Assembly: GCA_049582105.1 (NCBI GenBank)
Contig: JBAUTG010000066.1
Location: 5,661-69,660, forward strand
DNA: 64,000 nt
Source: Candidatus Dormiibacterota bacterium
Lineage (GTDB): Bacteria > Chloroflexota > Dormibacteria > Aeolococcales > Aeolococcaceae
Direction: 5' to 3'
The notes below the pieces were generated by a model. It searched no databases. It saw only the letters and a program-made list of their open reading frames with translations, and was not told the origin of the DNA. Of the stretch, positions 454-24,932 are shown piece after piece. The first letter of the stretch is position 1, and the number at the start of each line of letters is the position of its first letter. Both the position numbers and the translations under genes were made by a program.

Positions 454-487
454 CCGCGCCAAACAGGGGTTTGTCGAGGAGTCAAGG

Positions 488-1993
488 ATGATCTCGGATC
501 CAGACGAAGTTCGGCCGCTGGCTGTCGGAAATGAGGGCGAGTCCGACCTGGCGCTGGAGTTGGAGACGCTCCACGAATCCGTCGCGCATGACTTCACGAC
601 GACGGAGGCGGGGATCGTCCCTCTCGACCGCCGCAGATCGGCGGTCACGCTCGGAGCCGTGTGGCTGGTGCTGGAGGCAGGCTGGGTCTACATCTTCACC
701 GGGTTCGCGTTGTTCCAGGCGGGGCTCAACCTTGCGGAGACTTCACTCGACCTCTTGCTTGGGGTGGCGGTCTACTTCGCCTACTCCATGGTCGCGGCCT
801 ACATCGGTTCTCGCTCGGGGCAGACGCACTCGCTCCTCTCTCGATCCATCTTTGGGATTGCGGGATCGGGGTTGATATCGCTGGTCGTCTTTATGGTGCA
901 GATGGGGTGGGCCGGCTACCAGGCGAATCTCACCGCCGCGCTCTTCGGCGGCCTCTACGGGTGGACCGCGATTCTCGCCATCGGGGTGGTACTCGGCGTC
1001 GTCATGGTCTTCAACAACCTCTTCGGTTTCACCGGTCTGGCCACGTACGCCCGGTACATCGTGTCGCCGCTCCTCATCATCTGGGTTGTCTATCTCGTCA
1101 TCCGTGGGCTCCTCGAGGGCCATGCCACAACCACTCAACCGGCGGCCGTCGCTCCTCTGACCCAATTCGCAGCGATTGGGACAGTGATTGGTGCCGCGGT
1201 CTGGGGCGCTGAGCCAGATTACTGGCGATATGGCAAGCCGAAGTTCTGGTTCCCATCGCTCCCCCTGGCGTTTGCCTTGATCGTCGGCCTGTTCCTGAGC
1301 GGCCTGGCAGGCTGGACGATCGCCAATCTATCGCCAAGTCTCGATTTTGGGCCTGCGGTGGGTACCGCCACGCACCTGTCGCTGTTTGGGTTGACGTGGC
1401 TTGCATTCATCGTGATCCTCATCACGCAGGTGGGGATCAACGACGGCAACTACTATGAGTCGATCAACGCAATTCAGAACCTGCTCGGCGGAGTCAGGCG
1501 CTGGAAGCGGATCTACAGCGCGTTGATCTGCACAGCGGGGGCAGGCCTCGCCGCCTGGGTCATCCCATATGTGATCTCGAACGGCTTCTACAAGCTGGCC
1601 GCGTTCACGGCAATCGGTGTCCCATCGGCAACCATGATCATGGCGGTCGATCACTTCGTGTTGCCTCGCCTGTTTCGCATCTCGCGACCGCTTGATCGCA
1701 TACCCACCTGGAGCGAGGCCGGGAAGATCAACTGGGCAGCTGTTTTCGCCTTGGTGGTTAGCGTCACGTTTGGCTCGTTCGCCACTGGGCTCCTCGGAAA
1801 CAATGTCAACTACTGGGGCTTGGCACCTGTGGAGACCTGGATCGCGGCGGGCGCCATCTACGTGCTGGCGGTTTGGGTGACTCGAGCGCTGCGCCCAGAT
1901 GTCCGCTCGGTCCTGGGCTTTAGCAGCACCATCACGCAGGCGGAAGCCGATAGCGGATTGGCGGTCGACATCGGAGCACCGCAGGCTGCGTAA
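488..1993 (+). CDS. NCS1-family (purine-cytosine / allantoin / hydantoin type) permease
   Basis: ORF 425-1993 is a polytopic hydrophobic protein of about 500 aa with CodB/NCS1-like sequence. I moved the start to ATG 488 because it sits behind GAGGAG, whereas the listed TTG 425 coincides with the putative -35 box. Confidence 0.75.
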   Translation: MISDPDEVRPLAVGNEGESDLALELETLHESVAHDFTTTEAGIVPLDRRRSAVTLGAVWLVLEAGWVYIFTGFALFQAGLNLAETSLDLLLGVAVYFAYSMVAAYIGSRSGQTHSLLSRSIFGIAGSGLISLVVFMVQMGWAGYQANLTAALFGGLYGWTAILAIGVVLGVVMVFNNLFGFTGLATYARYIVSPLLIIWVVYLVIRGLLEGHATTTQPAAVAPLTQFAAIGTVIGAAVWGAEPDYWRYGKPKFWFPSLPLAFALIVGLFLSGLAGWTIANLSPSLDFGPAVGTATHLSLFGLTWLAFIVILITQVGINDGNYYESINAIQNLLGGVRRWKRIYSALICTAGAGLAAWVIPYVISNGFYKLAAFTAIGVPSATMIMAVDHFVLPRLFRISRPLDRIPTWSEAGKINWAAVFALVVSVTFGSFATGLLGNNVNYWGLAPVETWIAAGAIYVLAVWVTRALRPDVRSVLGFSSTITQAEADSGLAVDIGAPQAA

Positions 1994-2034: not shown

Positions 2035-2991
2035 GTGAACGAGCAGTTTTTTGCGAAGTCAGACCGATCTGTAGTCGGCGGTCCTCGAGAGATCGTTGGA
2101 TACGGCGAACACCCCCCTCACATCGAATGGCCAAACGGAGCCAAGGTGGCGGTGCAGATCGTCATCAACTATGAGGAAGGCTCCGAAAAGACATACGCAA
2201 TGGGGGACAACGTCAACGACATCATGGGTGAGTTGCCCTGGGTCGTTGAGGGTCAGCGGGACATGGCCGTCGAATCGATCTACGAGTACGGGTCCCGGGC
2301 CGGGATATGGCGACTGCTCCGCGTCTTTGACCAAGCGGCAGTTCCTGTGACCTTCTTCGCGACAGCAGTGGCTTTCCAACGGAATCCTGAGGTCGCGCGC
2401 AAGGCGGTGAGTCGCGGTGATGAGATTGCGGCCCACGGCTATCGATGGTCGAACCAATTCGAGATGACTCGTGACGAGGAACGTGAGGCGATCCGGCTCG
2501 CCGTGGCGTCGCTGACCTCGACGCTCGGCCATCGCCCGGTCGGCTGGTACTCGCGTGAGATGAGCGTCAATACTCGCGAGCTCGTGGTCGAGGAGGGGGG
2601 ATTCGAGTATGACTCCGAGTGTTACAACGACGACCTCCCATACTGGACTCTCGTACACAGCAAACCCCATCTCGTCGTGCCGTATACGCTCACGGTGAAC
2701 GACGTGCGCTACGTGCTCGGCACCGGATACGGCAGTCCTGAGCACTTCTTTGAATCCGCGCGAGCCGAACTTGACCGGCTGCGTCATGATGGCGACGACG
2801 TCAACCGAATGATGTCAATCGGACTGCACCCCCGCATCAGTGGCAGGCCGTCTCGGTCCGACGGCATTGCACGTTTTGTTGACTATGCGCAGTCGGTCGG
2901 GGACGTCTGGATCGCGAGGCGCGTGGACATAGCTCGAACATTCCGTGACCAATACCCCGCAGCACGAGCGTTCCCAGACGCGAAGGCCTAG
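2035..2991 (+). CDS. puuE: PuuE-type polysaccharide-deacetylase-family amidohydrolase (allantoinase PuuE-like)
   Basis: The 318-aa protein carries strings typical of PuuE / urate catabolism protein: VINYEEGSE, YEYGSRAGIWRLLRVF, HGYRW, GWYSRE, YNDDLPYW, MSIGLHPRISGRP. A GCAGGAG RBS sits 7 nt before GTG 2035. Confidence 0.8.
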   Translation: MNEQFFAKSDRSVVGGPREIVGYGEHPPHIEWPNGAKVAVQIVINYEEGSEKTYAMGDNVNDIMGELPWVVEGQRDMAVESIYEYGSRAGIWRLLRVFDQAAVPVTFFATAVAFQRNPEVARKAVSRGDEIAAHGYRWSNQFEMTRDEEREAIRLAVASLTSTLGHRPVGWYSREMSVNTRELVVEEGGFEYDSECYNDDLPYWTLVHSKPHLVVPYTLTVNDVRYVLGTGYGSPEHFFESARAELDRLRHDGDDVNRMMSIGLHPRISGRPSRSDGIARFVDYAQSVGDVWIARRVDIARTFRDQYPAARAFPDAKA

Positions 2992-3018: not shown

Positions 3019-3765
3019 TCATCGACCAGAGGATCGAGCCTTCCACTCAAGCGCGGTCTGAATCACGGCTCGGGCGACGACTGCGGACGGATCCACCCCG
3101 ATCCCTCGCCAAATGGAATCGTCCTCGGGTGCGATCAGCGGAAGCTCGGTACACGCCAGGAGCACAGATTGAGCGCCGCGCTCGATCATGTCCGCGGCGA
3201 CGATCCCCAGGTCGTCGCGAGCGCCGGCGGACGGGTGGCCGCCCTTCACCGCGTAGATCGCGCTCATGATGACGGCTTGCTCACCGGGGTTGGGAGAGAT
3301 CGCCGTTGCCCCTGCGTGTCCGAGTGCCACTTGATACACGCCTGACGACAATGTTCCGGTGGTGGCGAGGATGCCAACGCGCGTCTTACCACCATCAACA
3401 GCAGCAGCTGTGGCAAGGCCGATCCAATCAACCACTTCGAGACCAGCGTTCTCCGCCAGCTCAACGCGAAACACGTTGGCGGTGTTGCAGGGAATCACCG
3501 CAAAGGCGCACCCGGCGCGCCGCAAACGCTCGAGGCCGAGAATCATCGCCGGGCGTGGATCCTCGCCTCGCCCCAGCAAGAACTCCGTGCGGTCGGGTAT
3601 CTGCGGAAAGGAATCGATGACCACGTGAAGATGCTCTTGATCGTTTCTGGCGCCGGTCATCCTGATGAGGAGCTCGTAGAATGCCGCAGTCGCGCTCGGT
3701 CCCATTCCGCCCAAAATGCCCACGATCGGATCCCCCATGGAGTCCGATTCGGCCTCAGCTGCCAT
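3019..3765 (-). CDS. aspartate/glutamate-racemase-family protein (aspartate racemase type)
   Basis: Contains GILGGMGPSATAAFY near the N-terminus and the two catalytic Cys motifs IPCNTA and LACTELP. The start was set to an internal ATG (3765, or 3738), because the 5' 78 codons of ORF 3019-3999 are not family-like. Confidence 0.8.
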   Translation of the reverse strand: MAAEAESDSMGDPIVGILGGMGPSATAAFYELLIRMTGARNDQEHLHVVIDSFPQIPDRTEFLLGRGEDPRPAMILGLERLRRAGCAFAVIPCNTANVFRVELAENAGLEVVDWIGLATAAAVDGGKTRVGILATTGTLSSGVYQVALGHAGATAISPNPGEQAVIMSAIYAVKGGHPSAGARDDLGIVAADMIERGAQSVLLACTELPLIAPEDDSIWRGIGVDPSAVVARAVIQTALEWKARSSGR

Positions 3766-3893
3766 TGAGCGACTCACGAGGGGTTGGAACTCGCGATAGC
3801 TGCAGCGGCCGGTGGTATAATTGCGCCGTCCGAGCCCCCAAATCCCTTTGACCGCCGACGCCTTTGGGGGCAATTCTGCGACGTGGGGAACGC

Positions 3894-4892
3894 GTGAACA
3901 ATTCAGTTGCTGGAAGCCGAACATTGCTGTATTTGTCCAATGCCGATGTGGTGTCCATTGGGCCGACCATGGCCGAGACGATACCGTTGATCGAGTCAAT
4001 TCTCAAGGCGCGTGGTCGCGGTGAGTTGATCATGCCGCCGAAGGTCCCGATGTTTGCGTCACCATCCAATTGGTATCACGCACAACTCTCGTACTCGCCA
4101 TCGATGCGTCGCGGCGCCATCAAGTGGCAGTCGGGTTATCCAAGCAACCTGGGCATAGGTCTTCCCTCGATCATGGGTCTGCTCATCCTCAATGACGGAG
4201 CCACTGGGGCGCCCTTGGCGGTGATGGAGAGTGGCTGGCTCACCGCTCAACGAACCGGCGCGGTCAGCGGAGTTACGGCGCGCGCGCTCGGGAGAACCGA
4301 GGCACGAAGCGTCGCGCTTCTCGGCTGCGGCAAGCAGGCAATCACGCAGTTGGAAGCGTTGAGCGAGGCGCTGCCATTGATTGAGGCGATATATCTCTAC
4401 GATGTCGATCCTCAGGCGGCTCATCGCTTCGAGGAGTGGGGAGCCGGCAAATTCGCGCGCTTGCATTTTCATGTGCTGGACAACGCGAGAGACGCGGTAG
4501 GGGCAGCCGACATAGTCGTCACGATGGGCCCGATCGTCACCGGCGCGAGACGGCCCATCGAAGCCGACTGGTTGCAAGCCGGCGCTCTCGGGCTCCCATT
4601 GGACTATGACTGCTATTGGAGTGCTGCGGCACTTCGGGCGGTCGACCGCTACTTCGTCGATGACGTTCAGCAATACAACGGATATCGGACATATGGAGAG
4701 TTCTTTCAGGACGATGTCCCCGTTGTCGGTGACCTGCCTAACGTTCTGGTCGGCAACGTAGCCGGACGGGAAACAGATCAACAGCGAATCATCTCGATGA
4801 ACCTGGGGCTCGCAGTGGAGGATCTGGCTATGGCCGTTGAAATCGCGCGTCGAGCAGAGGCGGCTTCAGTTGGACAACGGCTACCGCTGTAG
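3894..4892 (+). CDS. ornithine cyclodeaminase / mu-crystallin family NAD(P) enzyme (copy 1)
   Basis: Family-like N-terminus LLYLSNADVVSIGPTMAETIPLIESIL, Rossmann motif LLGCGKQA, about 330 aa. The start is GTG 3894 (GGGGA upstream) or TTG 3924. Confidence 0.8.
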   Translation: MNNSVAGSRTLLYLSNADVVSIGPTMAETIPLIESILKARGRGELIMPPKVPMFASPSNWYHAQLSYSPSMRRGAIKWQSGYPSNLGIGLPSIMGLLILNDGATGAPLAVMESGWLTAQRTGAVSGVTARALGRTEARSVALLGCGKQAITQLEALSEALPLIEAIYLYDVDPQAAHRFEEWGAGKFARLHFHVLDNARDAVGAADIVVTMGPIVTGARRPIEADWLQAGALGLPLDYDCYWSAAALRAVDRYFVDDVQQYNGYRTYGEFFQDDVPVVGDLPNVLVGNVAGRETDQQRIISMNLGLAVEDLAMAVEIARRAEAASVGQRLPL

Positions 4893-4902
4893 GACGGTCG
4901 CC

Positions 4903-6201
4903 GTGCCACCTCCCAAAGCCGCCGAGCCTCCGCAGTCAACCGACAGCTTTGGCAACGCCTTCTCGCCGGGACTGCCGTATGCGAGAGGAGCCATCCTCAA
5001 CAGCGGCGAAGCCGAGTTCCTCAAGCTCGCGCAAGCGCGCAGTCACATTCGGCAGAGGGTTCTCCGCGGCGGTCGGGACGCCATCTTTGACATCTCGGGC
5101 CTGGAGCGAGGAATGCCACCAGGCGATCTGGACGTTTACAGCGACGAACTGAGCTCCGCCGTGCACGGGCAGCGCCTGCGTGAGCTTGCGCTAGAGCACC
5201 TTGGCGGGGACACATCCGCGCACGACATCCTCGTCTGCAATCGCCAGTCGGCGGCGCTCTTTGCGGCCTTGATGGTGATGGTCACATCAACCACCACGGT
5301 CGTCGGCTTCTCCCCAAGCTATTCACATCCAGCTGTGACGCGCCCCGTTCGATTCCTTGGTGCGCGATTTGTGGATACGAACGCGATCGGTGACTTTGAG
5401 TCGGCGATCGATGAGGCGAGCGACCCCGTCGTCGCGGTGCTGACACGGCTTCCAGTTTCCTATGCGGGAGTCATGTCGCTCGACGACCTCCAGGCGGCCG
5501 TCAGCCTGTGTCAGCGCCGGGGGATCCCGATCCTGGTCGACGATGCCGGAGGTGCACGCGTGGCGCCGGCCGTCTTCGGACAGCCGCGTTCGCTCCAGTT
5601 GGGGGTCGATGTCGCGACAACCGGTCTCGACAAGTACGGCACGGTAGGCCCTCGACTGGGGCTGATGGGTGGGCGAAAGGATTTGGTTGCAGCGATAACC
5701 ACCACTGCGTTTCAGTACGGACTCGAGGCACGTCCGATGCTCTATGCAGCGGTGATCCGATCGTTGGAGCAATACGATGAGGCGCGCGTGCGCGAGTTGA
5801 CCACCGCGACGCTTCGCCTGGGCGAGGCGCTGCATGAGCGCCTGGGATCGTCCGTTACGCAAACCCCGGTGGCGGTCAAGATCGAGGCGGACAATCTCCT
5901 CGCACTGGTTCTCGCGCGTTACGGGGAGACGGCGCCGCCGATCGTTCCCTATGAAGCCACTGCCGCAGTCGCGATGCTGCTGCTGCGTGACCACGGCATG
6001 CTCACCGTCCACTTCGCCGGCGTTCCCCCTGGAACCGCCGCGCTCCTGTTCAAGTTCACGCCACCCGAGGTGCTGGATCGCTTGGGAGGCGTCACGAAGA
6101 TTGCCGGCTTCGTGGACGCGGCCATCGACCAGGTTGCTGAGATGTTGCACGATCCAGACGCCATTCGTGAGTTGCTTGTCGGCGGTGGCGCATCGAATTG
6201 A
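4903..6201 (+). CDS. SelA/DgaE-like fold-type-I PLP-dependent enzyme, function unknown
   Basis: The motif TTGLDKYGTVGPRLGLMGGRKDLV resembles the SGDK..GGP.aG..G.k PLP-lysine region of SelA / D-glucosaminate-6-P ammonia-lyase. The start was placed at GTG 4903, after the upstream stop (4892) and behind AGGA. Confidence 0.6.
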   Translation: MPPPKAAEPPQSTDSFGNAFSPGLPYARGAILNSGEAEFLKLAQARSHIRQRVLRGGRDAIFDISGLERGMPPGDLDVYSDELSSAVHGQRLRELALEHLGGDTSAHDILVCNRQSAALFAALMVMVTSTTTVVGFSPSYSHPAVTRPVRFLGARFVDTNAIGDFESAIDEASDPVVAVLTRLPVSYAGVMSLDDLQAAVSLCQRRGIPILVDDAGGARVAPAVFGQPRSLQLGVDVATTGLDKYGTVGPRLGLMGGRKDLVAAITTTAFQYGLEARPMLYAAVIRSLEQYDEARVRELTTATLRLGEALHERLGSSVTQTPVAVKIEADNLLALVLARYGETAPPIVPYEATAAVAMLLLRDHGMLTVHFAGVPPGTAALLFKFTPPEVLDRLGGVTKIAGFVDAAIDQVAEMLHDPDAIRELLVGGGASN

Positions 6202-6302
6202 CGTCCTGAGGGAGTGTTGGCAGGCTCCGATGATCAACCGCCTGGACCCTCGGGGTATTGGGACTCGTTCTCGCTGAAGGATCGGTACCGAGGAGTGTGG
6301 TT

Positions 6303-7706
6303 ATGCTCGACCTTCTAATAACGGGTGGCGAGGTTGCGTCGTCCGCCTCCGTCTCGCGCCTCGACGTGGGTGTCCAGGACGGCAGGATTGCATTCCTCGC
6401 GACGCCGGGGATCTTCGACGGGACTGCGGCTCGAACCATTGACGCCACCGGCAAGTTCGTCGTGCCGGGAGGCGTGGATGCGCATGTTCATTTCAGCACG
6501 CCCTGGGGCCAGACCATGCTGAGCCAATCTGCAACATCGGGCGGACGAGCCGCAGCCTTTGGCGGAACCACCACCTTCATCGACTTTGCCGCGCAACACG
6601 ACGCCGGAAGTCTTCTCGATGCGATCTCGGCCAAACGTGATGAGCTGAAGGGAGGCAAGCCCAGCGTCGATTACGCCCTCCACGCCATGATCACCGGTCA
6701 GAGCACTCTTGAGGTGCTGGATGAGATGCCAGATGCCATCAAGGAGGGCATCACGTCGTTCAAGATGTATACGACGTTCTCATCCACCTCAGACGGAACG
6801 ACAGGTCTGTATTCAGACGACGGAAGAATCTGGGGTGTGATGTCACAGGCAGCCCGTCTGGGTGGCATTGTGATGGTCCATTGCGAAGACGATTCCCTCA
6901 TTGCCCACAACATCCATTGCCTCTACCGCGACGGTCAGCAGCAGACAACGAACATGTCCAAGGCGAGAACCGGCCTGGCTGAGGAAGCGGCGATCCGGCG
7001 GATGCTGCTGCTGTCTCGGCGGTCCAACGCTCCGCTGTATGTGTGCCACATCTCGTCGCGGTTCGGAATGGAAGCGCTTGCTGAGGCACGCGACGCGCAC
7101 ACTCCCGCCTTCGGCGAGGTCTTGCACAACAACTTGAGCTACACATCGGTGGAGTACGAGCGACCGGATGGCATGCTCTATCATTGTTATCCGGGGTTGA
7201 AGCCGGAGGACGACCAGAAGGCGCTCTGGGAAGGGGTCGCCGATGGGGTCGTCGATACGGTCTCGTCTGACGAATTCACTCTGTCGAGGGCCGAGAAGCT
7301 CGAGGGAGCGACCGTTGACACGGCAACCGGAGGCCACAACGGAATTGAAACGCGTCTCGGCGTCTTCTACTCGGGTGCGGTCACGCAGCGATCGCTCTCG
7401 TTGCGGCGCTTTGTCGAACTCACCTCCGAAGGGCCTGCGAGGCTCTTCGGGTTGTATCCGCGAAAGGGAGTCATTGCACCGGGAAGCGACGCAGACATCG
7501 TGCTGCTCGATCCAAAAGCAGCCAGGACGATTCGTCAGAGCGATCTGCACTCCGCGTGCGACTACAGCATCTGGGACGGCTGGGAGTGCGCCGGATATCC
7601 TTCGACGACGATCCTTCGCGGCAACGTTTTGGTGGAAGATGGCCAGTGGGTCGGAACAGAGGGGCTGGGCGACTTCCTGCGCTGCACATCGCCGAACGAG
7701 CCATGA
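6303..7706 (+). CDS. cyclic amidohydrolase (D-hydantoinase / dihydropyrimidinase family), paralog 1
   Basis: Metal ligands are present: GGVDAHVHF (HxH), SFKMY (carbamylated Lys), MVHCED, YVCHIS, VSSDEF. The start is at MLDLLITGG (ATG 6303). Confidence 0.85.
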   Translation: MLDLLITGGEVASSASVSRLDVGVQDGRIAFLATPGIFDGTAARTIDATGKFVVPGGVDAHVHFSTPWGQTMLSQSATSGGRAAAFGGTTTFIDFAAQHDAGSLLDAISAKRDELKGGKPSVDYALHAMITGQSTLEVLDEMPDAIKEGITSFKMYTTFSSTSDGTTGLYSDDGRIWGVMSQAARLGGIVMVHCEDDSLIAHNIHCLYRDGQQQTTNMSKARTGLAEEAAIRRMLLLSRRSNAPLYVCHISSRFGMEALAEARDAHTPAFGEVLHNNLSYTSVEYERPDGMLYHCYPGLKPEDDQKALWEGVADGVVDTVSSDEFTLSRAEKLEGATVDTATGGHNGIETRLGVFYSGAVTQRSLSLRRFVELTSEGPARLFGLYPRKGVIAPGSDADIVLLDPKAARTIRQSDLHSACDYSIWDGWECAGYPSTTILRGNVLVEDGQWVGTEGLGDFLRCTSPNEP

Positions 7707-8764
7707 CTTCGATGTCACTCGGCAGCGCAGCGTCGTCCGAGGATGTCGGGAACCGGCGCGGTGAGGGCGAGGTGCCCCGTGTCGGCGTGATCTTCACAGG
7801 CGGATCAATCGATTGCCTTGGCACCGACCGTCTTGATCTCGCCTGGTACGTCGAGACGGGGCAACGGCTCGAGAACCACCAACTGCTCGAGCGCATACCC
7901 GAGGTCGTTCAGATCGCCGAGGTGCACGAGCTTCCATTCAGAAAGTTGCCCAGCCATGGCTTGTCAGGTGCCGATTGGCTTCAACTGGCTGAGGTCGTCT
8001 CCGCATCTCTGGAGAACGAGAACATGGCTGGCGCGGTGATCACGCATGGCACAAACACCCTCGAGGAGACGGCGTACTTCCTCCATCTTGTCCTCAACTC
8101 AGAAAAGCCAGTGGTCCTCACGGGATCAATGCGTCCGCCGTCCGGGCTGAGCCCTGACGGGGATCTGAATCTGCTGAATGCGATCCGCGTGGCGGCGAGC
8201 CCATCCGCCCGACATCGCGGTGTGCTCATCGTCCTCAACGACACGATCCACTCCGCACGTGACGTGACCAAGAGCTCGACCATGAGGGTCGATACGTTTC
8301 AAGACCGCGAACTCGGCCCCTTGGGTTTCGCCGATCCAGATGGAAACGTCGTCTTTTACCACGATGTTCTGAAACGGCACACGGTGAGCAGCGACTTTGG
8401 CATCGGCGATGTCGATGCTCTCCCGAGGGTCGACATCGTCCTCTCGTACGTTGGGGCGGATGAAGTCATGATCGATGCAGCTGTGTCGCACGGCGCTCGA
8501 GGCATAGTCTGCGCTGCTTATGGAGCTGGGTATCTCGGTCCGGCCCAAGAGACAGCCCTCGAAGCTGCGCGTCGGTCGGGGGTGGCTATCTGCATCGCAA
8601 GTCGCGTTGGATCCGGTCGTGTCGTCCGAAGCCCAAGTATCGCCACACGAGGATTCATCGCGGCGGGCAACCTCCTCCCGTGGAAGGCTCGATTGCTGTT
8701 GAGCCTGGCGCTGACTCGCACCAAGAATACGAGCGACATCCAAGCAATATTCGACACCTACTGA
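7703..8764 (+). CDS. L-asparaginase/glutaminase family protein, copy 1
   Basis: Motifs FTGGSID and THGTNTLEETAYFL match the asparaginase signatures. ATG 7703 overlaps the hydantoinase stop (ATGA). Confidence 0.85.
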   Translation: MTSMSLGSAASSEDVGNRRGEGEVPRVGVIFTGGSIDCLGTDRLDLAWYVETGQRLENHQLLERIPEVVQIAEVHELPFRKLPSHGLSGADWLQLAEVVSASLENENMAGAVITHGTNTLEETAYFLHLVLNSEKPVVLTGSMRPPSGLSPDGDLNLLNAIRVAASPSARHRGVLIVLNDTIHSARDVTKSSTMRVDTFQDRELGPLGFADPDGNVVFYHDVLKRHTVSSDFGIGDVDALPRVDIVLSYVGADEVMIDAAVSHGARGIVCAAYGAGYLGPAQETALEAARRSGVAICIASRVGSGRVVRSPSIATRGFIAAGNLLPWKARLLLSLALTRTKNTSDIQAIFDTY

Positions 8765-8781
8765 AGTCGAGGAGTTCCGAC

Positions 8782-9453
8782 GTGTACGAGATCGATGGCA
8801 AACGCGTCTACACCGAGCTGGCGGAGCTGGTCGAACCGTCCCACACGGCTCTGATCGTGATCGACATGCAGAAGGATTTCTGCTCGAGGGACGGAAGCTT
8901 CGCCAAGCAGGGTCTGGACCTCTCCGCCTACGAATCCATGGTGCCTCGTTTGGCGAAGTTGCTCGATGCCGCACGATCGTTTGGGGTCACCGTCATTCAC
9001 CTGCAGATGACGACACTTCCCGGCCACCGGGTCGAATCGCCTGCACAGATCCGCTTCAACATGCTGCAGCGCCCCGTCGGCGGGACTGAGCCCGTGTCCG
9101 TCGTCTACACGGTGGAGGGCACCGAAGGCCATCAGATCATCCCGGAGCTGAGCCCGATGGCTTCGGAATTCATTGTCCCCAAGTACCGTTCGAGCGGCTT
9201 CTGGGGCACAAACCTGGACATGATCCTGGGCAGCAATGGGCTGGAAACGGTGATTGTCACCGGCTGTACCACAGAGGGTTGTGTCGAGTCGACGGCGCGG
9301 GACGCTCTGTTCAACGACTACTACGTGGTCGTGGCGGAGGACTGTGTCGCGAGCGATCTTCCCGAGCAACACGAGGCCTCGCTCGTGCTCATGCGAAAGC
9401 GGTTCGACGTGGCGACCTCAGATGCCATTTGTGCGGCCTGGCAGGCGCGCTAG
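8782..9453 (+). CDS. isochorismatase-family cysteine hydrolase (N-carbamoylsarcosine amidase / RutB-like)
   Basis: A D-K-C triad context is present: ALIVIDMQKDF, VPKYRSSGF, VTGCTTEGCVEST. GTG 8782 follows a GAGGAG RBS and lies after the asparaginase stop at 8764. Confidence 0.8.
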   Translation: MYEIDGKRVYTELAELVEPSHTALIVIDMQKDFCSRDGSFAKQGLDLSAYESMVPRLAKLLDAARSFGVTVIHLQMTTLPGHRVESPAQIRFNMLQRPVGGTEPVSVVYTVEGTEGHQIIPELSPMASEFIVPKYRSSGFWGTNLDMILGSNGLETVIVTGCTTEGCVESTARDALFNDYYVVVAEDCVASDLPEQHEASLVLMRKRFDVATSDAICAAWQAR

Positions 9454-9480: not shown

Positions 9481-10431
9481 ATGACTGTGTTCGGACCGGG
9501 CTTCGCCGTCCTGGGTGCTGACGAACTTCGTCAGAGCCTGCCGATGCTCGAGTTGATTCCGGCCATCGGGAATGAGTTCGCTCGGAGTCCAGCCGCACCG
9601 AAGCGAACTGTCATCGAACTGCCCGGCGAGCGCTGGCAGATCATGTCGAGCTACTCGCCCGAGACTGGATTGGTGTGCAAGGTGGTGAACGTCTCCCTAC
9701 AACGCCGCTCGAACGGCTATCCACTCATCTCGGGGGCACTCATGCTGTTGAGCCCACAGGGAGATGTCAGAGCCATCATCGACGCGGGCACGTCGAACGC
9801 CCGACGAACCGGTGCCGTCGCCGCGTGGGCGACATCGATGCTGGCCAAGCGAGACGCAGCGGTACTGGCGCTGTTCGGTGTTGGCAGCCTGGCCGAGCCT
9901 CAGATCGAAGCAATCAACTGCGTTCGGCCTCTGCGCGAAATCCGAGTGGTGGCAGGAAGCGAAGAGCATGCTCGGACCTTCGCTGCGCGCATGCGAGAAC
10001 ACGGATGGAACATCCGAGCAGAGTCAGTCGCTGGAGCGTTGTACGGGGCGGACATCGTTTCCACCTGCACGACATCACCAACTCCGGTGTTTCCTGATGA
10101 CCTCATCGAGGAGGGCGTACATATCAACGCCATCGGACAGTACCGCCCCGACCGACGGGAGATACCGGCTGCAACCGTTGCGCGAGCGAAGGTTGTGGTT
10201 GAGAGCTTGTCGTCGGCGTGGGACGAAGCCGGGGAGCTCATCCTCGCACGAGACGAGGGCGTCATCAGCGAGAGCCACGTCGTCGGGGAACTCATCCACG
10301 CCGATACGCTGACGAGCATACGGACGTCCGATCGCGATATCACCCTCTTCAAATCGGTTGGCAGCGCGATCGCCGACATGGCGGCTGCCCGCGTCGTTCT
10401 TGAGCACCTGGACGAACACTCGGAGGGATGA
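9481..10431 (+). CDS. ornithine cyclodeaminase / mu-crystallin family NAD(P) enzyme (copy 2; candidate pyrroline/piperideine-2-carboxylate reductase)
   Basis: 316 aa with Rossmann motif LFGVGSLAE and the family-wide pattern. Its context with AcnX and a DadA-like gene suggests the reductase role. Confidence 0.8.
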   Translation: MTVFGPGFAVLGADELRQSLPMLELIPAIGNEFARSPAAPKRTVIELPGERWQIMSSYSPETGLVCKVVNVSLQRRSNGYPLISGALMLLSPQGDVRAIIDAGTSNARRTGAVAAWATSMLAKRDAAVLALFGVGSLAEPQIEAINCVRPLREIRVVAGSEEHARTFAARMREHGWNIRAESVAGALYGADIVSTCTTSPTPVFPDDLIEEGVHINAIGQYRPDRREIPAATVARAKVVVESLSSAWDEAGELILARDEGVISESHVVGELIHADTLTSIRTSDRDITLFKSVGSAIADMAAARVVLEHLDEHSEG

Positions 10432-11177
10432 GCATGGCGGAGAGCAATGAGCGGGTGGCGATCGTGACTGGCGGCGGCACCGGCCTCGGAAGAGCGATGG
10501 CCATCGCCCTGGCCTCGGACGGCACCGACGTTGTCGTCAACTTCTCGCGTTCGGAGGGCGAGGCGGCGGAGACCGCAGCCGTGATTCGGGAGATGGGTCG
10601 GCGAGCGAAGGTGGTTCGCGCGGATGTCGCGGTCGAAGCGCAAGTCGCGTCGATGGTCCGCGAGGCGATGAATGAGTTTGGGCAGATCGACTATCTCATC
10701 ATCAATGCCGGCACGACGGTGTTCTGTGACCTCAGCAACCTGGATGGCATTACGGAATCCGACTGGGACCGCATCCTCGGCGTGAACGTCAAAGGCGCGT
10801 GGTTCTGCGCGAAACATGCGGCGCCCCATATGAAAGAGCGGGGCGGGCACATCGTCACCATCTCGTCGACGGCGGGATTGATGACGATGGGCTCGAGCAT
10901 TCCGTACTGCGTCTCGAAAGCCGGTCTGCTACATCTGACGCGGATGCTGGCCAGAGCCCTGGCACCAGAAATTCAGGTGAACTCAATCGCGCCCGGACTT
11001 CTGGATACCCGGTGGGGGCGCCATCACGGGGAGGCCGGGATCGCGGCATATGTGGAGCGTTCGCTCCTCCACCGTATCCCGTCGCTGGACGACATTTGCG
11101 CTCAGCTGTTGGTGCTGTTGCGGAGCCGGTCGACAACCGGCCAGACAGTGGTGATGGACGGAGGCTTGACGGTGTGA
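10428..11177 (+). CDS. short-chain dehydrogenase/reductase (SDR)
   Basis: TGGGTGLGRA cofactor motif and YCVSKAG catalytic motif. There is an ATGA overlap with the upstream stop. Confidence 0.85.
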   Translation: MSMAESNERVAIVTGGGTGLGRAMAIALASDGTDVVVNFSRSEGEAAETAAVIREMGRRAKVVRADVAVEAQVASMVREAMNEFGQIDYLIINAGTTVFCDLSNLDGITESDWDRILGVNVKGAWFCAKHAAPHMKERGGHIVTISSTAGLMTMGSSIPYCVSKAGLLHLTRMLARALAPEIQVNSIAPGLLDTRWGRHHGEAGIAAYVERSLLHRIPSLDDICAQLLVLLRSRSTTGQTVVMDGGLTV

Positions 11178-11220
11178 AGTTGCGCCGATCGCGCGGTGCG
11201 CCGGGGAGAGGCTGTATCGA

Positions 11221-12483
11221 ATGGTGAAGCGCGCAGATGCGGCCGTCGACACCGACGTCCTCATCGTCGGTGGAGGTGCAATCGGCATCGCGACAGCCCA
11301 GGCTCTCGCGTGCCAGGGTCTCGGCGTCACAGTGGTCGAGCAGGGTTCCGTCGGGGCGGGTTGCTCATGGGGCAACGCAGGGTTGATTGCGGCGAGCCAG
11401 GTGACCCCTCTCGCATCACCGCGAGCACTCCTCCAGGGAATGGAGGGAATGTTCGATCGGAACGGGCCAGTGGTGATACGGCCGCGCCTTGATCCCGGTT
11501 TCCTGCGATGGACGACGCGATTCCTGTCCCAGTGTTTCCGGAATCCATCCCGGTCGAGACGCGCCCTCAACGCTCTTGCAGTGCTTAGCAGCGACCTCCA
11601 CAAGCAGCTCGCGGCTGAGATACCGGTTGACTATGGTTACCGTCAATCAGGGTGGCTCCATGTGTTCAGAACCGAGGGTGCTCTGAAACGCGCGGTGCGG
11701 GGCGCCGCGGACCTGTCCGACTTCGGGATCCGCTCGGTGGTCCTGGATCGGACGCAGGTCCAGAGCGTGGAGCCAATGGTGAGCGATGGAGTGGTCGGCG
11801 GTATCCATTTCACCGACGATGCGCATTTGCAGCCGGGGCCGTTCGTTGAGGCGTTGGCGGAGCGAGCACGGTCAAAGGGCGTCGCGATCATGACGGGAAC
11901 GACCGTTCGAGGGTTCCGGGTAGAGGGGAGTCGGGTGTCGACAGTGCTGACCACCCAGGGTGAGATGTCGTTCCGATGGCTTGTGCTTGCGGCCGGCGCC
12001 TGGACAAGGCCCCTCGGCCGCCGCTTGGATGTGAACCTCCCGATCGAGCCCGCCAGAGGGCATTCGATTTCGTTCACGCCAGATCGTCAACTCACGGTGC
12101 CCGTCATGCTGTCGGAACTGCACATCTCGATATCACCACAGGGCGCCGGTGCCAGGGTCACCAGCGGTCTTGAATTCGCAGGGTTCAACACCGCTGTGAG
12201 CGAGAGACGGCTGGACCACATGCTGCAGGCACCCGCGGGTTACCTCGACGGATTGGGTGCGAAACCGGGCACACGGTGGGTGGGCTTTCGTCCGTTGACG
12301 CCAGACGATCTGCCAATCATCGGACCGGTGCGTCGTTATACGAACGTCCTCATCGGCTCCGGCCACGGGACGCTCGGCATTACCCTGGCAACCGGTACGG
12401 CTCGCATCCTCTGTGATCAAATTCTCGGGTCGGCGAGTCCGATAGATTCGAGGCCCTTCATGCCGAGCCGATTCCGAGTGTAG
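11221..12483 (+). CDS. FAD-dependent oxidoreductase, D-amino-acid dehydrogenase (DadA)-like
   Basis: N-terminal VLIVGGGAIGIATAQALA...CSWGNAGLI, 420 aa, GGAGAGG RBS. Confidence 0.8.
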   Translation: MVKRADAAVDTDVLIVGGGAIGIATAQALACQGLGVTVVEQGSVGAGCSWGNAGLIAASQVTPLASPRALLQGMEGMFDRNGPVVIRPRLDPGFLRWTTRFLSQCFRNPSRSRRALNALAVLSSDLHKQLAAEIPVDYGYRQSGWLHVFRTEGALKRAVRGAADLSDFGIRSVVLDRTQVQSVEPMVSDGVVGGIHFTDDAHLQPGPFVEALAERARSKGVAIMTGTTVRGFRVEGSRVSTVLTTQGEMSFRWLVLAAGAWTRPLGRRLDVNLPIEPARGHSISFTPDRQLTVPVMLSELHISISPQGAGARVTSGLEFAGFNTAVSERRLDHMLQAPAGYLDGLGAKPGTRWVGFRPLTPDDLPIIGPVRRYTNVLIGSGHGTLGITLATGTARILCDQILGSASPIDSRPFMPSRFRV

Positions 12484-12494
12484 GCGTCAGGAGA

Positions 12495-13769
12495 TTGTCT
12501 GTCTTGTCAGAACTGAAGCTGAGCGACTACGAGCGTGGTTTGCTGGCCGGCAGCCACGGGGAGGGTGCGCGCCTCGCAATCCGAATCATCGTTGAGTACG
12601 CCGAGGCGCTGGGTGCGGTCGAGCTCCTCCCCATTACACGAGCTCACATCGACGGGTGCCTCTACCATGGTGATTCCGGGCTGGATTTCGCGCAAAAGCT
12701 CACGGACGGCGGCGCTACGGTCATGGTTGACACCACGCTCAACGTGGGTGGCGTCGACCTCCTGCACCCGCATCTCAATCGTGGGGATCCGAAGCGTGCG
12801 GAGCAGGCCGGCAAGCTCATGAGACTCTACGAGAACATGGGTTGCAAACCCACGTGGACATGCGCCCCGTACCAGCTCATCAACCGCCCTACGTTTGGCG
12901 AGCACGTGGCATGGGCGGAGTCGAATGCGGTTGTCTTCATCAATTCGGTTGTGGGTGCACGGAGTGAGCGATACGGGGATTTCATCGACATCTGCGCTGC
13001 GCTGACTGCACGCGTGCCGAACCACGGCCTGCACATCACCGAGCACCGGCGGGGTGAGGATGTTTTTGACGTGTCGAATCTTCCGCCGGAGTGGGAAGAG
13101 ACCTCGCTGTTCTGGCCGCTGCTGGGCCTGATCGTGGGCCGCGCCGCGGGTAAGCGCGTTCCCGTCGTGACTGGGGTCCGGCGCCGGCCGACTGAGGATG
13201 ACCTCAAGTCATTCGGCGCTGCCGCCGCCTCATCGGGGTCAGTCGCGCTGTTCCACGTCGTCGGGTTCACCGCCGAAGCCGCCAACCTGGATGCTGCGCT
13301 GCACGGTCGATCGCCGTCGCGTGTCACGGCGGTCACCGGGGCAATGCTGCGGGATGCGGCGGCCGCCATCGACTCGCACGGCGGGGGTGTCCTGGCGGCA
13401 GTGAGTGTCGGAACCCCGCATTTCTCTCTGTCAGAATTCGGGCAGTTGGTCACCCACATCGACGGACGGCGACGAGACTCACAGGTTGACTTCTATGTGT
13501 CCACCAGTCGAGCCACGCTTGACGAAGTCGCTCGACGCGGTTGGCTCGATCTCCTGAACGCATTTGGTGCAGAGGTGGTGGTCGACACGTGCACCTACTT
13601 CGCTCCGATCATCAGAAACCCGAGCGGTCTCGTCATGACCAACTCCGCGAAATGGGCCTACTACGCCCCAGGTAATATCGGGGCGAAGGTCGTGCTTGGA
13701 ACGCTCTCAGACTGCGTTTCGTCGGCAGTACTGGGGAGAATTGTGAGAGGGAGTCTTCCCCCTGGTTGA
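12495..13769 (+). CDS. aconitase X large (catalytic, DUF521) subunit; candidate cis-3-hydroxy-L-proline dehydratase
   Basis: 424 aa with a DUF521-like sequence (AHIDGCLYHG, TCAPYQL, CTYFAP), followed directly by a DUF126 gene. The start is TTG 12495 or 12504. Confidence 0.8.
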   Translation: MSVLSELKLSDYERGLLAGSHGEGARLAIRIIVEYAEALGAVELLPITRAHIDGCLYHGDSGLDFAQKLTDGGATVMVDTTLNVGGVDLLHPHLNRGDPKRAEQAGKLMRLYENMGCKPTWTCAPYQLINRPTFGEHVAWAESNAVVFINSVVGARSERYGDFIDICAALTARVPNHGLHITEHRRGEDVFDVSNLPPEWEETSLFWPLLGLIVGRAAGKRVPVVTGVRRRPTEDDLKSFGAAAASSGSVALFHVVGFTAEAANLDAALHGRSPSRVTAVTGAMLRDAAAAIDSHGGGVLAAVSVGTPHFSLSEFGQLVTHIDGRRRDSQVDFYVSTSRATLDEVARRGWLDLLNAFGAEVVVDTCTYFAPIIRNPSGLVMTNSAKWAYYAPGNIGAKVVLGTLSDCVSSAVLGRIVRGSLPPG

Positions 13770-13800
13770 GCACGATCGGACCGTCCGTATCAAGTCGCTG

Positions 13801-14190
13801 GTGGCTGGAGAAGCCGTGGGCCCGGCGGTCGTCTTAGAGGAACCCCTGAGCCTTTGGGGAGGACTTGACCCGGCGACCGGACTGATCATCGACGCCCACC
13901 ATCCCCAGCATGGTGTGCAAGTTGGCGGATCGATGCTCGTGATGCCGAGCGGGCGCGGCTCCAGCTCAAGTAGCAGCGTCCTTGTGGAGGCAGTCCGACG
14001 GCATACGAATCCGGTGGCACTCTTGCTATTCGAGACTGATGAGATTCTCATCCTCGGGGCAATCGTTGCAAGGGCTCTCTACGGTGTGTCGGTCCCAGTG
14101 GCCCTTCTGGGCAGCGCGGGGCAGACCTCTGTTCGCAGCGGTGACGTTGTCGAAATCATTGATTCGCACATCAGGATTAGGGGCAGATAA
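13801..14190 (+). CDS. aconitase X small (swivel, DUF126) subunit
   Basis: GEAVGPAVVLEEPLSLWGGLDPATGLIID...SGRGSSSSSSVL is the DUF126 signature. The first canonical start is GTG 13801. An in-frame CTG at 13762, overlapping the upstream stop, would give a more family-like N-terminus. Confidence 0.75.
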   Translation: MAGEAVGPAVVLEEPLSLWGGLDPATGLIIDAHHPQHGVQVGGSMLVMPSGRGSSSSSSVLVEAVRRHTNPVALLLFETDEILILGAIVARALYGVSVPVALLGSAGQTSVRSGDVVEIIDSHIRIRGR

Positions 14191-15245: not shown

Positions 15246-15271
15246 ACAGCCGACGGGTTATCGCTCCTAGA

Positions 15272-15351
15272 TTGGATCCGCGACACTATATCGGGTCCGA
15301 AACTTGACGTCAAGGACGCCAATACCCAGAATGTGCGGCACCTTGGATCCG
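15272..15351. promoter_or_regulatory. candidate operator cluster in the ltaE / SDR divergent region
   Basis: A perfect 10-bp palindrome TTGACGTCAA (15304-15313) is flanked by two direct copies of TTGGATCCG (15272-15280 and 15343-15351). Confidence 0.3.
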
Positions 15352-15431
15352 AAATATCTGCTCCGAGTCGGAGTGGACCGCGGCGGGCCGTCCACGGACA
15401 GCTCAGGCGAACAGCGCGAAGGGGATGAGCG

Positions 15432-16262
15432 ATGAGTGACCACGCATCGGGGAGGCTGGTGGGGAAGGTGGCGATCGTCACCGGCGGGGGTCGGGGCATC
15501 GGCGCGGCAATCTGTCGACGCTATGCGATCGAGGGAGCCAAGGTGGTCGTCGCAGACATCGAAGCCGACACGGCTCGCGACACAGCGCGGCAGATCGTCG
15601 ATGCCGGCGACGAAGCGATCGCCATTGCCGCGGACGTGAGCGATGGCGTCCAGGTTGCGCAACTTGTGGCCGAGACGCTGCGCGTCTACGGGACCGTCGA
15701 CATCCTGGTCAATAACGCCGCCATCGTCCGAGCGGCTGCCCGCCATTTTCTCGAGGCCGATGAAGCCTGGTGGGATTGGATCATCGGCACGAATCTGAAG
15801 GGTCACTTCCTGTGTTCCCTCCACGTCGCACGTCATATGGCACGCCACGGTGGCGGCACGATCATCACGATGTCCAGCGGAGGCGCGACGCGCGCGCACC
15901 GCGGCATGGTGGCCTACGACGCCTCCAAGGGCGGCATCGAAGCGATGACACGAGCGCTTGCCCTCGACCTTGCCCCCTACGGCATTCGAGTCGTCGGCCT
16001 CGTCCCCGGGCTGATCGTCCCCGCCCGGGAGACCACCGACCCCGCGGCGCTGGCCAGGACAGACGCAACCGTGCCGCTTGGGCGTGCCGGGGTGCCGGAG
16101 GATATCGCTGGACCGGCCGTGTTCCTCGCATCCGAGGATGCGCAGTACATCACCGGGAGCCTCGTGACTGTGGATGGGGGAGTGCTCTTTCAGCAGCGCT
16201 CGCCGCAGATAGAGACGTTCCCGCCTGAACGATTCCCGGCGATGAGCGCGGTGCCTGAGTGA
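15432..16262 (+). CDS. short-chain dehydrogenase/reductase (SDR)
   Basis: TGGGRGIGAAI motif and YDASKGG catalytic motif; GAAGGGGA RBS. Confidence 0.85.
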   Translation: MSDHASGRLVGKVAIVTGGGRGIGAAICRRYAIEGAKVVVADIEADTARDTARQIVDAGDEAIAIAADVSDGVQVAQLVAETLRVYGTVDILVNNAAIVRAAARHFLEADEAWWDWIIGTNLKGHFLCSLHVARHMARHGGGTIITMSSGGATRAHRGMVAYDASKGGIEAMTRALALDLAPYGIRVVGLVPGLIVPARETTDPAALARTDATVPLGRAGVPEDIAGPAVFLASEDAQYITGSLVTVDGGVLFQQRSPQIETFPPERFPAMSAVPE

Positions 16263-16342
16263 GTACCGCGTAGAAGACGGCACGCTCCCCCGGTAGCCGA
16301 CATGTCATTTCCGGCACGTCGCGAGTCAGTTCGCCGCGGCGC

Positions 16343-20966: not shown

Positions 20967-20997
20967 CCTGGCCTCACGTGAGAGACCGCGCGGCTCG

Positions 20998-21018
20998 GGA
21001 CGACATCTCAAGTCGTCC
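20998..21018 (+). terminator. terminator-like hairpin without a U-tract
   Basis: GGACGAC-atctcaa-GTCGTCC, 32 nt after the stop at 20966. Confidence 0.3.
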
Positions 21019-21123
21019 AGTGCCGGATTGCACTTATGGGATAATCCGAGGCCTTCCGCAGGCGACAAAACTTGGTGCTCCAGGGTTCCCTCAAGGAATT
21101 TGACGCGTGGATGGGGTGACGAC

Positions 21124-24925: not shown

Positions 24926-24932
24926 TCCCCAG

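Follow-up and report, generated by a model that had tools for sequence, protein, structure and literature searches.

A predicted ring-opening amidohydrolase of the hydantoinase family and its alternating asparaginase-fold and isochorismatase-family neighbours in uncultured soil bacteria

Introduction

A 64,000-nucleotide stretch of DNA from Candidatus Dormiibacterota bacterium (GenBank assembly GCA_049582105.1, contig JBAUTG010000066.1, positions 5,661 to 69,660 of the forward strand; hereafter 'the window') carries three closely packed genes, which we call HYD1, ASN1 and ISO. Their predicted products are a ring-opening amidohydrolase of the dihydropyrimidinase/D-hydantoinase family, an asparaginase-fold amidase and an isochorismatase-family cysteine hydrolase, respectively. 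The best reading of this triad, which we would place a little short of probable on the strength of sequence comparison and gene context, is that HYD1 opens a cyclic amide and that an interchangeable second amidase then attacks the ureido or half-amide group of the product. One observation behind this proposal is that, among relatives of HYD1 in soil metagenomes, ISO-type and asparaginase-fold (ASN-fold) genes take each other's place in a cluster that is otherwise conserved. A preliminary description of the same DNA had suggested two chemistries for the triad, one in which the asparaginase serves as a half-amidase and another in which ISO carries out the second step, and the evidence below bears differently on each.

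Results and discussion

Gene order and conservation of the triad

The coordinates of the three genes (Table 1), the ATGA shared by HYD1 and ASN1, and the 17-nucleotide spacer between ASN1 and ISO (8765-8781) all proved exact as first described when the open reading frames (ORFs) were re-read. The ASN1 start at 7703 overlaps the HYD1 stop codon, and a GAGGAG Shine-Dalgarno sequence precedes the GTG start of ISO. The same HYD-ASN-ISO order is found in independent soil assemblies (loci L086/L087, L172/L173/L174 and L180), and gene coordinates confirm the 4-nucleotide HYD-ASN overlap in L087, L172-L174 and L180. The L086 contig is of nanopore type and has split genes; there, the asparaginase gene is called at 372 amino acids (aa) and its overlap with HYD is longer. 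When the window was compared with L172, whose HYD protein is 90% identical, the ratios of nonsynonymous to synonymous substitution rates (dN/dS) were 0.10 for HYD1, 0.17 for ASN1 and 0.10 for ISO, with dS of about 0.26-0.53 across the triad genes. All three genes are under purifying selection. Because the order recurs in independent assemblies and the dN/dS values are low, the arrangement is not an accident of assembly.

The earlier statement that no classical carbamoylase is present was upheld by a scan of the larger ORFs throughout the 64 kb, which covered some but not all of the small ORFs and turned up no gene of the Peptidase_M20, CN_hydrolase or amidase-signature families. A search for promoters and terminators in the region from 1 to 15.5 kb returned no more sites than shuffled sequences did, and is uninformative in DNA of such high guanine-cytosine (GC) content.

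Wider comparison does not support a fixed unit of three enzymes. The triad is retained in relatives with 96% and 90% HYD identity. In L088 (91% HYD identity), HYD and ISO are separated by a 59-codon in-frame remnant of ASN1 (L088 positions 1380-1559) left by an internal deletion, which retains the ATGA start, the last ASN1 codons and the native stop, so that the arrangement ahead of ISO is preserved. In L001/L002 (85% HYD identity), HYD is followed after 134 nucleotides by ISO with no trace of ASN1, and the module of permease, PuuE-like, racemase, OCD1 and pyridoxal 5'-phosphate (PLP) enzyme genes that lies upstream of HYD1 in the window still adjoins, in inverted orientation. Adjacency of HYD and ASN1 is confined to a narrow lineage in which HYD identity is at least 90%. 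The nearest ASN1 orthologue beyond this lineage is that of L089, which is 71% identical and shares the Ser nucleophile. Its gene comes after an ABC transporter and is the first of an OCD2-SDR-SDR-DAO-AcnX block, the block that lies behind ISO in the window; neither HYD nor ISO is found in L089. Because ASN1 has been deleted in L088 and is absent from L001/L002, the gene is dispensable and lineage-specific, and its low dN/dS argues that it is functional where present.

Adjacency of HYD and ISO is more durable. It is kept in L001/L002, L088, L172 and L086, and it recurs in L010, L068 and L022 with ISO proteins that are just 28-32% identical to that of the window.

Alternation of ISO and asparaginase-fold genes

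The commonest context of the HYD family in MAGs (metagenome-assembled genomes) of Dormibacterota and Actinomycetota is an ordered cluster that runs GntR-HYD-coenzyme A (CoA)-transferase-thiolase-like-(amino-acid permease)-ASN2-type-DUF35-(OCD)-alanine racemase, where brackets mark genes that are not always present. It is found in L003-L012 and L028, and again in the window itself, where a second cluster at 19665-27584 begins with a DAO-type flavoprotein gene and includes the paralogues HYD2 and ASN2 (Table 1). The preliminary description had missed this second cluster, except for the 'SSDDF' motif of HYD2. Its DUF35 and alanine racemase genes were called by tblastn to L004 genes that bear zf-ChsH2/OB_ChsH2_C and Ala_racemase Pfam marks.

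At L010 and L068 the genes run NCS1-HYD-ISO-CoA-transferase-thiolase-like-DUF35. These two loci thus carry an ISO gene where L003-L012, L028 and the HYD2 cluster carry an ASN2-type gene, and it is on this basis that we regard the two kinds of gene as alternatives. The pair formed by the CoA-transferase and the thiolase-like gene follows HYD in L003-L012, L028, L010 and L068, and in 19 of 33 loci the gene after HYD encodes a family III CoA-transferase. Genes for ISO and for ASN-fold proteins are mutually exclusive in all contexts except the window's own lineage.

This association was also evident in counts of neighbours within 10 kb, for which loci were dereplicated at 95% and the outgroup comprised a sister family at 38-42% identity together with canonical hydantoinases. 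An ASN-fold neighbour is present at 11 of 27 HYD-family loci and at none of 49 outgroup loci (Fisher p 2e-6), an ISO neighbour at 7/27 versus 0/49 (p 4e-4), and one or the other at 16/27 versus 0/49 (p 1e-9). The pairing of hydantoinase and asparaginase genes, whose co-occurrence had been proposed as a check on the triad, is therefore statistically strong for the family as a whole, whereas the specific HYD1-ASN1 pair is restricted to its narrow lineage. The ASN-fold partners fall into three subfamilies: the ASN1 type, the ASN2 type and a third type (L016, L018 and L027) whose catalytic residues are canonical.

It is important to note that ASN2 might not be an ordinary amidase. ASN2 and its orthologues (L003-L012 and L028) keep the equivalents of Thr12, Ser58 and Thr89 of the asparaginase EcAII, and have Ala or Gly in place of Asp90, Glu in place of Lys162 and Gly in place of Glu283. 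These replacements suggest that ASN2 may use a different mechanism or have a non-hydrolytic role.

HYD1 as a divergent member of the hydantoinase family

HYD1 belongs to the Pfam family Amidohydro_1, and its top model is TIGR02033 (D-hydantoinase/dihydropyrimidinase), which it matches at 365.9 bits, below the curated cut-off of 393.25. A phmmer search gave a full-length match to the D-hydantoinase 1NFG (E 3.5e-80, residues 2-460). An AlphaFold model (predicted local distance difference test, pLDDT, 75.5; predicted template modelling score, pTM, 0.83) superimposes on dihydropyrimidinase and D-hydantoinase structures with Foldseek TM scores of 0.84-0.86. Modelling of the active-site loops, which the preliminary description had recommended, confirmed only the fold, and the confidence of the model collapses precisely at gate loops 1 and 3. 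We also considered HYD1 as an isoaspartyl dipeptidase or a dihydroorotase, and rejected both assignments because the corresponding PDB and NCBIfam matches are far weaker than those to hydantoinases.

The metal ligands of HYD1 (H61, H63, K154, H193, H249 and D323) are intact and are invariant across an alignment of 31 family sequences with at least 51% identity, every one of them drawn from a MAG (Dormibacterota, Actinomycetota, Proteobacteria, Chloroflexota and other groups). The residues expected around the substrate are another matter. Phe159 replaces the catalytic/oxyanion Tyr five residues past the carbamylated Lys; Tyr296, within an H-x-Y-P-G-L-K motif, replaces the Ser288 equivalent, the Ser contact before PPLR; and D323-E324-F325 stands at the position of the S/T-D-H motif, where the family motif is S-D-[E/D]-F. 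These three states are shared by 31/31 family members, whereas the canonical relatives included in that alignment (31-37% identity) have Y, S and D-H-C at those positions. Gate loop 3 carries, in addition, a 6-residue insertion. Thus, the earlier remark that the SSDEF/SSDDF sequence (SSDEF being HYD1 residues 321-325) differs from the textbook SDH motif was correct, and it understated the deviation. HYD1 therefore retains the full binuclear-metal machinery around a rebuilt substrate pocket, and it belongs to a branch of the dihydropyrimidinase/D-hydantoinase family that has yet to be characterised.

These replacements bear directly on one alternative, namely that HYD1 is an ordinary dihydropyrimidinase or hydantoinase of reductive pyrimidine catabolism and that ISO substitutes for beta-ureidopropionase. 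Dihydropyrimidinase is indeed the top NCBIfam model, relatives are labelled dihydropyrimidinase by the Joint Genome Institute (JGI), and an NCS1 permease gene is close by. However, HYD1 scores 366 bits where the curated cut-off is 393, the whole family has other residues in place of the catalytic Tyr and the SDH motif, no gene for dihydropyrimidine dehydrogenase occurs in any of the contexts examined, and the neighbours encode amino-acid enzymes and CoA-transferase/thiolase-like proteins. We consider this explanation very unlikely.

The sister family at 38-42% identity (Alphaproteobacteria, L029-L065) has also replaced the canonical Tyr and SDH residues, with K..N and D-E-L. At the single locus inspected (L036, 9989-12761) the HYD relative adjoins a CobW/COG0523 GTPase gene, with a gene for a TonB-dependent receptor about 1 kb upstream, and these neighbours suggest that the sister family is a zinc-starvation paralogue.

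ASN1 as a candidate non-asparagine amidase

ASN1 contains both asparaginase domains (PF00710, N-terminal, 177 bits; PF17763, C-terminal, 95 bits) and matches type II asparaginases in the PDB with E values from 1e-70 to 1e-61. Its score against the type II L-asparaginase model TIGR00520 is 302.9 bits, below the cut-off of 314.3, and no signal peptide was recognized when the sequence was judged by eye. Residues were compared with those of an EcAII reference sequence, which is corroborated by the PDB alignments of ASN1. Thr89 (T117) and Lys162 (K190) are kept. The nucleophile Thr12 has become Ser35 in the window subclade only. Throughout an ASN1 family that reaches down to about 60% identity, Asp90 is replaced by Asn (Asn118 in ASN1), Gln59 by His (His85) and Glu283' by Ser or Gly (Ser312). 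The equivalent of Tyr25 is ambiguous in the alignment (W48/Y49). In EcAII, Gln59, Asp90 and Glu283' hold the alpha-amino group of asparagine. Because all three residues have been replaced, ASN1 is unlikely to be a plain L-asparaginase. The structural model of ASN1 has a mean pLDDT of 69 and is too uncertain near the active-site loops, with residues 34-51 and 180-201 below 50.

Relatives of ASN1 at 56-61% identity, which have an HGTN motif, are encoded in L090 (5553-10427), L104 (8001-15506) and L106 (1-5453). Their neighbours include further ring-openers of the Amidohydro_1 family, as well as an ISO gene, XDH-like molybdoenzymes and a UbiD decarboxylase, and these contexts look like clusters for the catabolism of N-heterocycles. 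Most of the contigs recovered in the metagenome scan for ASN1 relatives are too short for gene context.

Given the loss of ASN1 from L088 while HYD and ISO stay together, and given the L089 orthologue that heads the downstream block with neither of them, it might be argued that there is no sequential link at all. The island would then be a collection of independent nitrogen-scavenging hydrolases for amino-acid derivatives that share an operon for co-regulation, with ASN1 belonging to the OCD2-SDR-DAO-AcnX genes. Many unrelated amino-acid enzymes within the island (an S58 peptidase, Thr aldolase-like and D-Ser-dehydratase-like proteins and two DAO proteins) would suit such an arrangement. This view does not readily account for the statistically strong, repeated and independent recruitment of three ASN-fold subfamilies and at least two ISO lineages beside the HYD family in alternating fashion, nor for the ASN1-family relatives that again adjoin other ring-opening amidohydrolases, and for these reasons we judge the absence of any link to be quite unlikely.

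ISO and the imidase alternative

ISO matches the Pfam family PF00857 (Isochorismatase) at 150 bits, and its triad D28, K134 and C167 aligns with the triads of TrtA and BiuH. The nearest solved structures are BiuH (2e-28), TrtA (1.6e-26), RutB (1.7e-22) and N-carbamoylsarcosine amidase (7.5e-14), all of which cleave terminal ureido or carbamoyl amides. ISO scores far below the curated cut-offs for BiuH (118.6 versus 370) and RutB (105.2 versus 378), and the TrtA substrate contacts E72 and K132 correspond to Met76 and Ser137. An identity as biuret or triuret hydrolase was rejected on these two grounds.

The closest relatives of ISO beyond the window's lineage, at 63-64% identity (L175-L179), are found in a conserved amino-acid permease-ISO-SDR-SDR cluster, together with a PuuE-like gene, a thiamine pyrophosphate (TPP) enzyme and nitrilase-type/amidase-type hydrolases. 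This cluster probably represents another uncharacterised ureide/amide pathway.

The company that these relatives keep is one reason to take seriously a second alternative, a re-paired form of the half-amidase suggestion, in which HYD1 and ASN1 act as imidase and half-amidase, converting a cyclic imide by way of a half-amide to a dicarboxylate or acidic amino acid, while ISO serves the PuuE-like ring-opener encoded 4 kb upstream. The relatives accompany PuuE-like genes in loci that have no HYD; HYD1 is linked to ASN1 by the ATGA coupling; and the lost alpha-amino binders of ASN1 would be expected for an enzyme that acts on a succinamate- or glutaramate-type substrate. Family III CoA-transferases, which so often follow HYD, typically use dicarboxylates. 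Furthermore, D-hydantoinases are described as having imidase activity (PMC13098106, PMC11424739). What tells against this arrangement is again the pattern of loss: the 85% and 91% relatives retain the HYD-ISO adjacency without ASN1, L010 and L068 have HYD and ISO but no PuuE-like gene, and the nearest outside orthologue of ASN1, in L089, has neither partner. On balance, we regard this explanation as unlikely, even if it is the strongest of the rivals.

The conservation data therefore fit best with the suggestion in the preliminary description that ISO carries out the second step, as the HYD-ISO pair survives in L088 and L001 and recurs in L010, L068 and L022. Its other suggestion, that the asparaginase acts as a half-amidase, is partly supported at the level of the family by the three ASN-fold subfamilies, by their alternation with ISO and by the lost alpha-amino binders.

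Proposed route

In the two-step scheme that we favour, the NCS1 permease, a member of the nucleobase/hydantoin transporter family, would import a five- or six-membered cyclic ureide or imide, and HYD1 would hydrolyse one ring C-N bond of the imported compound. The linear product would end in -CO-NH2, either as a ureido group or as a half-amide, and a second amidase would strip this group as ammonia, plus CO2 in the case of a ureide. Across the HYD family this second enzyme might be either an ISO-type cysteine hydrolase or an ASN-fold protein, and in no case an M20 or nitrilase carbamoylase of the classical kind. In the window's lineage ISO would be the constant partner and would follow the logic of N-carbamoylsarcosine amidase, RutB and BiuH, whereby NH3 is freed and the carbamate then sheds CO2. 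ASN1 would be an accessory, either for a second amide within this class of substrates or for an amide that leads into the OCD2-SDR-DAO-AcnX (hydroxyproline-type) genes. The order of the reactions, the nature of the substrate and the matching of each amidase to its amide are what we infer here. There is a hint that the substrate or product is aspartate-like, with an acidic substituent, which comes from the Asp-type racemase and the D-3-hydroxyaspartate-aldolase-like gene of the window, the aspartate aminotransferase of L172, and the methylaspartate ammonia-lyase and CoA-transferase of L001. Specific substrates that we considered, including dihydroorotate- or carboxymethylhydantoin-type Asp ureides, aminosuccinimide or aminoglutarimide, N-alkyl hydantoins, and 5-aminodihydrouracil or albizziine, could not be ranked computationally.

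Several points weigh against the scheme of a ring-opener followed by an interchangeable amidase. The tight ATGA coupling joins HYD1 with ASN1 rather than with ISO. The missing TrtA/BiuH contacts in ISO weaken the case for ureide specificity, and the L175-L179 clusters, with PuuE-like genes and no HYD, raise the prospect that the partner of ISO could be the PuuE-like ring-opener instead of HYD1. If ASN2 is no hydrolase at all, as its residues allow, then the argument for interchangeable amidases would be weakened for the ASN2-type clusters. Finally, the co-occurrence counts rest on flanks of at most 10 kb in MAG contigs, with homology established by tblastn only.

A broader proposal extends this scheme to an undescribed catabolic route that would be common to soil Actinomycetota, Dormibacterota and others, in which a rebuilt hydantoinase opens a cyclic amide, ASN-fold proteins (one subfamily of them without the canonical Lys162 and Asp90) serve as ureido or half-amide hydrolases interchangeable with ISO-type enzymes, and the product passes to a family III CoA-transferase and a thiolase-like/DUF35 pair that cleaves a C-C bond. 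We regard this extension as possible but doubtful. An allantoin pathway for the entire cluster, suggested by the PuuE-like gene and the NCS1 permease, was set aside, as it fails to explain the HYD-family contexts without PuuE, and was kept as an option for the PuuE/ISO pair only.

Comparison with known systems

The creatinine/1-methylhydantoin route is the nearest working analogy. It likewise uses a hydantoin ring-opener followed by an isochorismatase-family decarbamoylase, N-carbamoylsarcosine amidase, without an M20 or nitrilase enzyme, and in Tissierella creatinophila a D-hydantoinase-like gene is clustered with the gene for this amidase (PMC5364220). However, those N-methylhydantoinases that have been characterised are HyuA/HyuB enzymes that depend on ATP (PMC8864220), whereas HYD1 falls in a non-canonical hydantoinase branch. 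In addition, the sarcosine enzyme is a more distant match to ISO (7.5e-14) than BiuH (2e-28), TrtA and RutB are, and the creatinine deaminase/sarcosine oxidase set is absent here.

The classical hydantoinase process resembles the window in its ring-opening cyclic amidohydrolase of the same fold, its NCS1-type permease and its racemase of the Asp_Glu_race superfamily. It differs in that no M20 or nitrilase carbamoylase was found in the scanned ORFs of the window, the racemase of the window fits Asp/cysteate models, and the Tyr and SDH residues of D-hydantoinases are replaced in HYD1. ISO has the same fold and Asp-Lys-Cys triad as BiuH, TrtA and RutB, but its scores lie far under all the NCBIfam cut-offs (for BiuH, 119 bits against 370) and it lacks the E72/K132 pair.

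Cyclic-imide metabolism in Blastobacter sp. A17p-4, from the work of Ogawa and Shimizu, reportedly proceeds through an imidase and a half-amidase. It offers the same two-step logic of ring hydrolysis followed by half-amide hydrolysis, a likeness drawn from description rather than from sequence comparison, and no half-amidase of the asparaginase or isochorismatase fold is known from that work.

Asparaginase-family genes have been noted beside cyclic-amide hydrolases in two other settings. In the purine-catabolism cluster of Rubrobacter xylanophilus, the asparaginase-like gene Rxyl_2849 is located two genes downstream of allantoinase (PMC4016543), and in the succinamopine region of a tumour-inducing (Ti) plasmid an asparaginase gene lies beside HyuA/B (PMC6733357). 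Both cases share with the window the putative deamidation of a ring-opened product, although the partner is an allantoinase or an ATP-dependent HyuA/B enzyme, and no sequence relationship to ASN1 is established. Our literature searches on hydantoinase with isochorismatase and asparaginase, on imidase/half-amidase clusters and on dihydropyrimidinase with a cysteine hydrolase did not return the combination seen here, only the Tissierella, Rubrobacter and Ti-plasmid remarks.

Pathways of this general type, in which a ring-opener is followed by a decarbamoylase or half-amidase outside the classical families, are already known. The new elements are the hydantoinase branch, its ASN-fold partners, their alternation with cysteine hydrolases, and the link to a CoA-transferase/thiolase-like/DUF35 module. 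Because curated cut-offs and defining residues fail while superfamily features hold, we suggest that HYD1, ASN1 and ISO should be filed as new subfamilies and not as D-hydantoinase, type II L-asparaginase and BiuH/TrtA/RutB.

If the proposal is correct, these genes would define a new specificity class within an industrially used hydantoinase/imidase family, give the asparaginase fold a new role as a non-asparagine amidase, and provide a specific example in which the 'carbamoylase' step has undergone non-orthologous displacement. Thousands of metagenomic proteins carry the labels 'dihydropyrimidinase', 'L-asparaginase' or 'nicotinamidase-related amidase', and for this family such labels are probably wrong. 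Since members of the HYD family come only from uncultured soil lineages, heterologous expression is the sole route to their chemistry. The weight of these findings would grow if a new class of substrate or a new asparaginase-fold chemistry were demonstrated.

Genomic setting

The triad forms the middle of an operon of about 10 genes on the same strand with short gaps (about 3.9-14.2 kb), which the preliminary description had overlooked. The order is OCD1, an MJ0158-family PLP enzyme, HYD1, ASN1, ISO, OCD2, SDR, DAO1, and the AcnX large and small subunits. OCD2 resembles pyrroline/piperideine-2-carboxylate reductases, and DAO1 is a flavoprotein that resembles D-amino-acid dehydrogenases. The MJ0158-family gene adjoins OCD1 in L001, L086 and L172 alike. 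The PuuE-like gene is conserved in these same three loci, and the NCS1 permease gene is kept beside the module in all three and immediately precedes HYD in L010 and L068. The racemase scores 212 bits against the CuyB cysteate racemase model, above the cut-off of 190; its best models are amino-acid (Asp/cysteate) racemases of the Asp_Glu_race superfamily and not hydantoin racemases.

Table 1. Location and predicted identity of genes in the window
Feature	Position	Strand	Description
NCS1-family permease	485-1993	+	Divergent; Pfam Transp_cyt_pur, weak NCBIfam NCS1/cytosine permease matches; likely importer
PuuE-like gene	2035-2991	+	PuuE-type (polysaccharide-deacetylase fold) allantoinase-like cyclic amidohydrolase; TIGR03212 356 bits (cut-off 425); PDB 3CL6 (PuuE) E 2e-89
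Amino-acid racemase	3019-3765	-	Asp/Glu type; Pfam Asp_Glu_race, NCBIfam asp_race subfamily; start inferred from orthologues of 248-250 aa
OCD1	3894-4892	+	OCD/mu-crystallin family dehydrogenase, SbnB/archaeal AlaDH-like; Pfam OCD_Mu_crystall; best PDB match 4M54 (which we take to be SbnB), E 5e-31
PLP enzyme	4855-6201	+	MJ0158 family; TIGR03576 180 bits; PDB 2AEU E 4.5e-38
HYD1	6303-7706	+	ATG 6303 to TGA 7706, 467 aa; predicted non-canonical dihydropyrimidinase/D-hydantoinase-family ring-opening amidohydrolase
ASN1	7703-8764	+	ATG start, 353 aa; predicted cytoplasmic asparaginase-fold amidase with altered substrate pocket (S35, H85, N118, Y277, S312)
ISO	8782-9453	+	GTG start, 223 aa; predicted isochorismatase-family cysteine hydrolase, triad D28, K134, C167
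OCD2 (Pyr2C/Pip2C-reductase-like), SDR, DAO1, AcnX large and small	9481-14190	+	Gaps of 27, -4, 43, 11 and 31 nucleotides
D-3-hydroxyaspartate-aldolase-like gene	17437-18786		
HYD2	21124-22530	+	HYD1 paralogue, 67% identity; carries SSDDF
Family III CoA-transferase	22550-23743	+	
Thiolase-like protein	23744-24925	+	SCP-x type
ASN2	24933-25919	+	Asparaginase-fold, 32% identity to ASN1
DUF35 protein	~25978-26418	+	OB-fold/Zn-ribbon partner of thiolase-like protein; approximate boundaries
Alanine racemase	ends 27584	+	Approximate boundaries
Mycothiol S-transferase	27388-28101		

Two differences among related loci are also recorded. L172 has an additional aspartate-aminotransferase-family gene (3888-5093, minus strand) between the PuuE-like gene and the racemase, which is absent from the window, and L001 has genes for methylaspartate ammonia-lyase and a family III CoA-transferase (4817-7317) about 3-5 kb upstream of HYD-ISO. 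In the window, a long minus-strand ORF at 15267-16283 has no family match, and the real gene at this site is a plus-strand SDR (15432-16262), as called in L086.

The GC content is 61-64% in the first 27 kb or so, which comprise the catabolic island, and 65-70% in the remainder (28000-64000). Judged on gene content, the DNA would probably be taken for that of an actinomycete, a hint given by the mycothiol S-transferase gene at 27388-28101; the assembly record names Candidatus Dormiibacterota. This higher-GC remainder holds housekeeping genes, including those for prolyl oligopeptidase, UvrD, GH127, an amino-acid kinase, a semialdehyde dehydrogenase and homocitrate synthase/homoaconitase, as well as a histidine-biosynthesis group (a HisRS-like paralogue, HisG, histidinol dehydrogenase and two His_biosynth-family genes) and a glutamine-synthetase-like gene.

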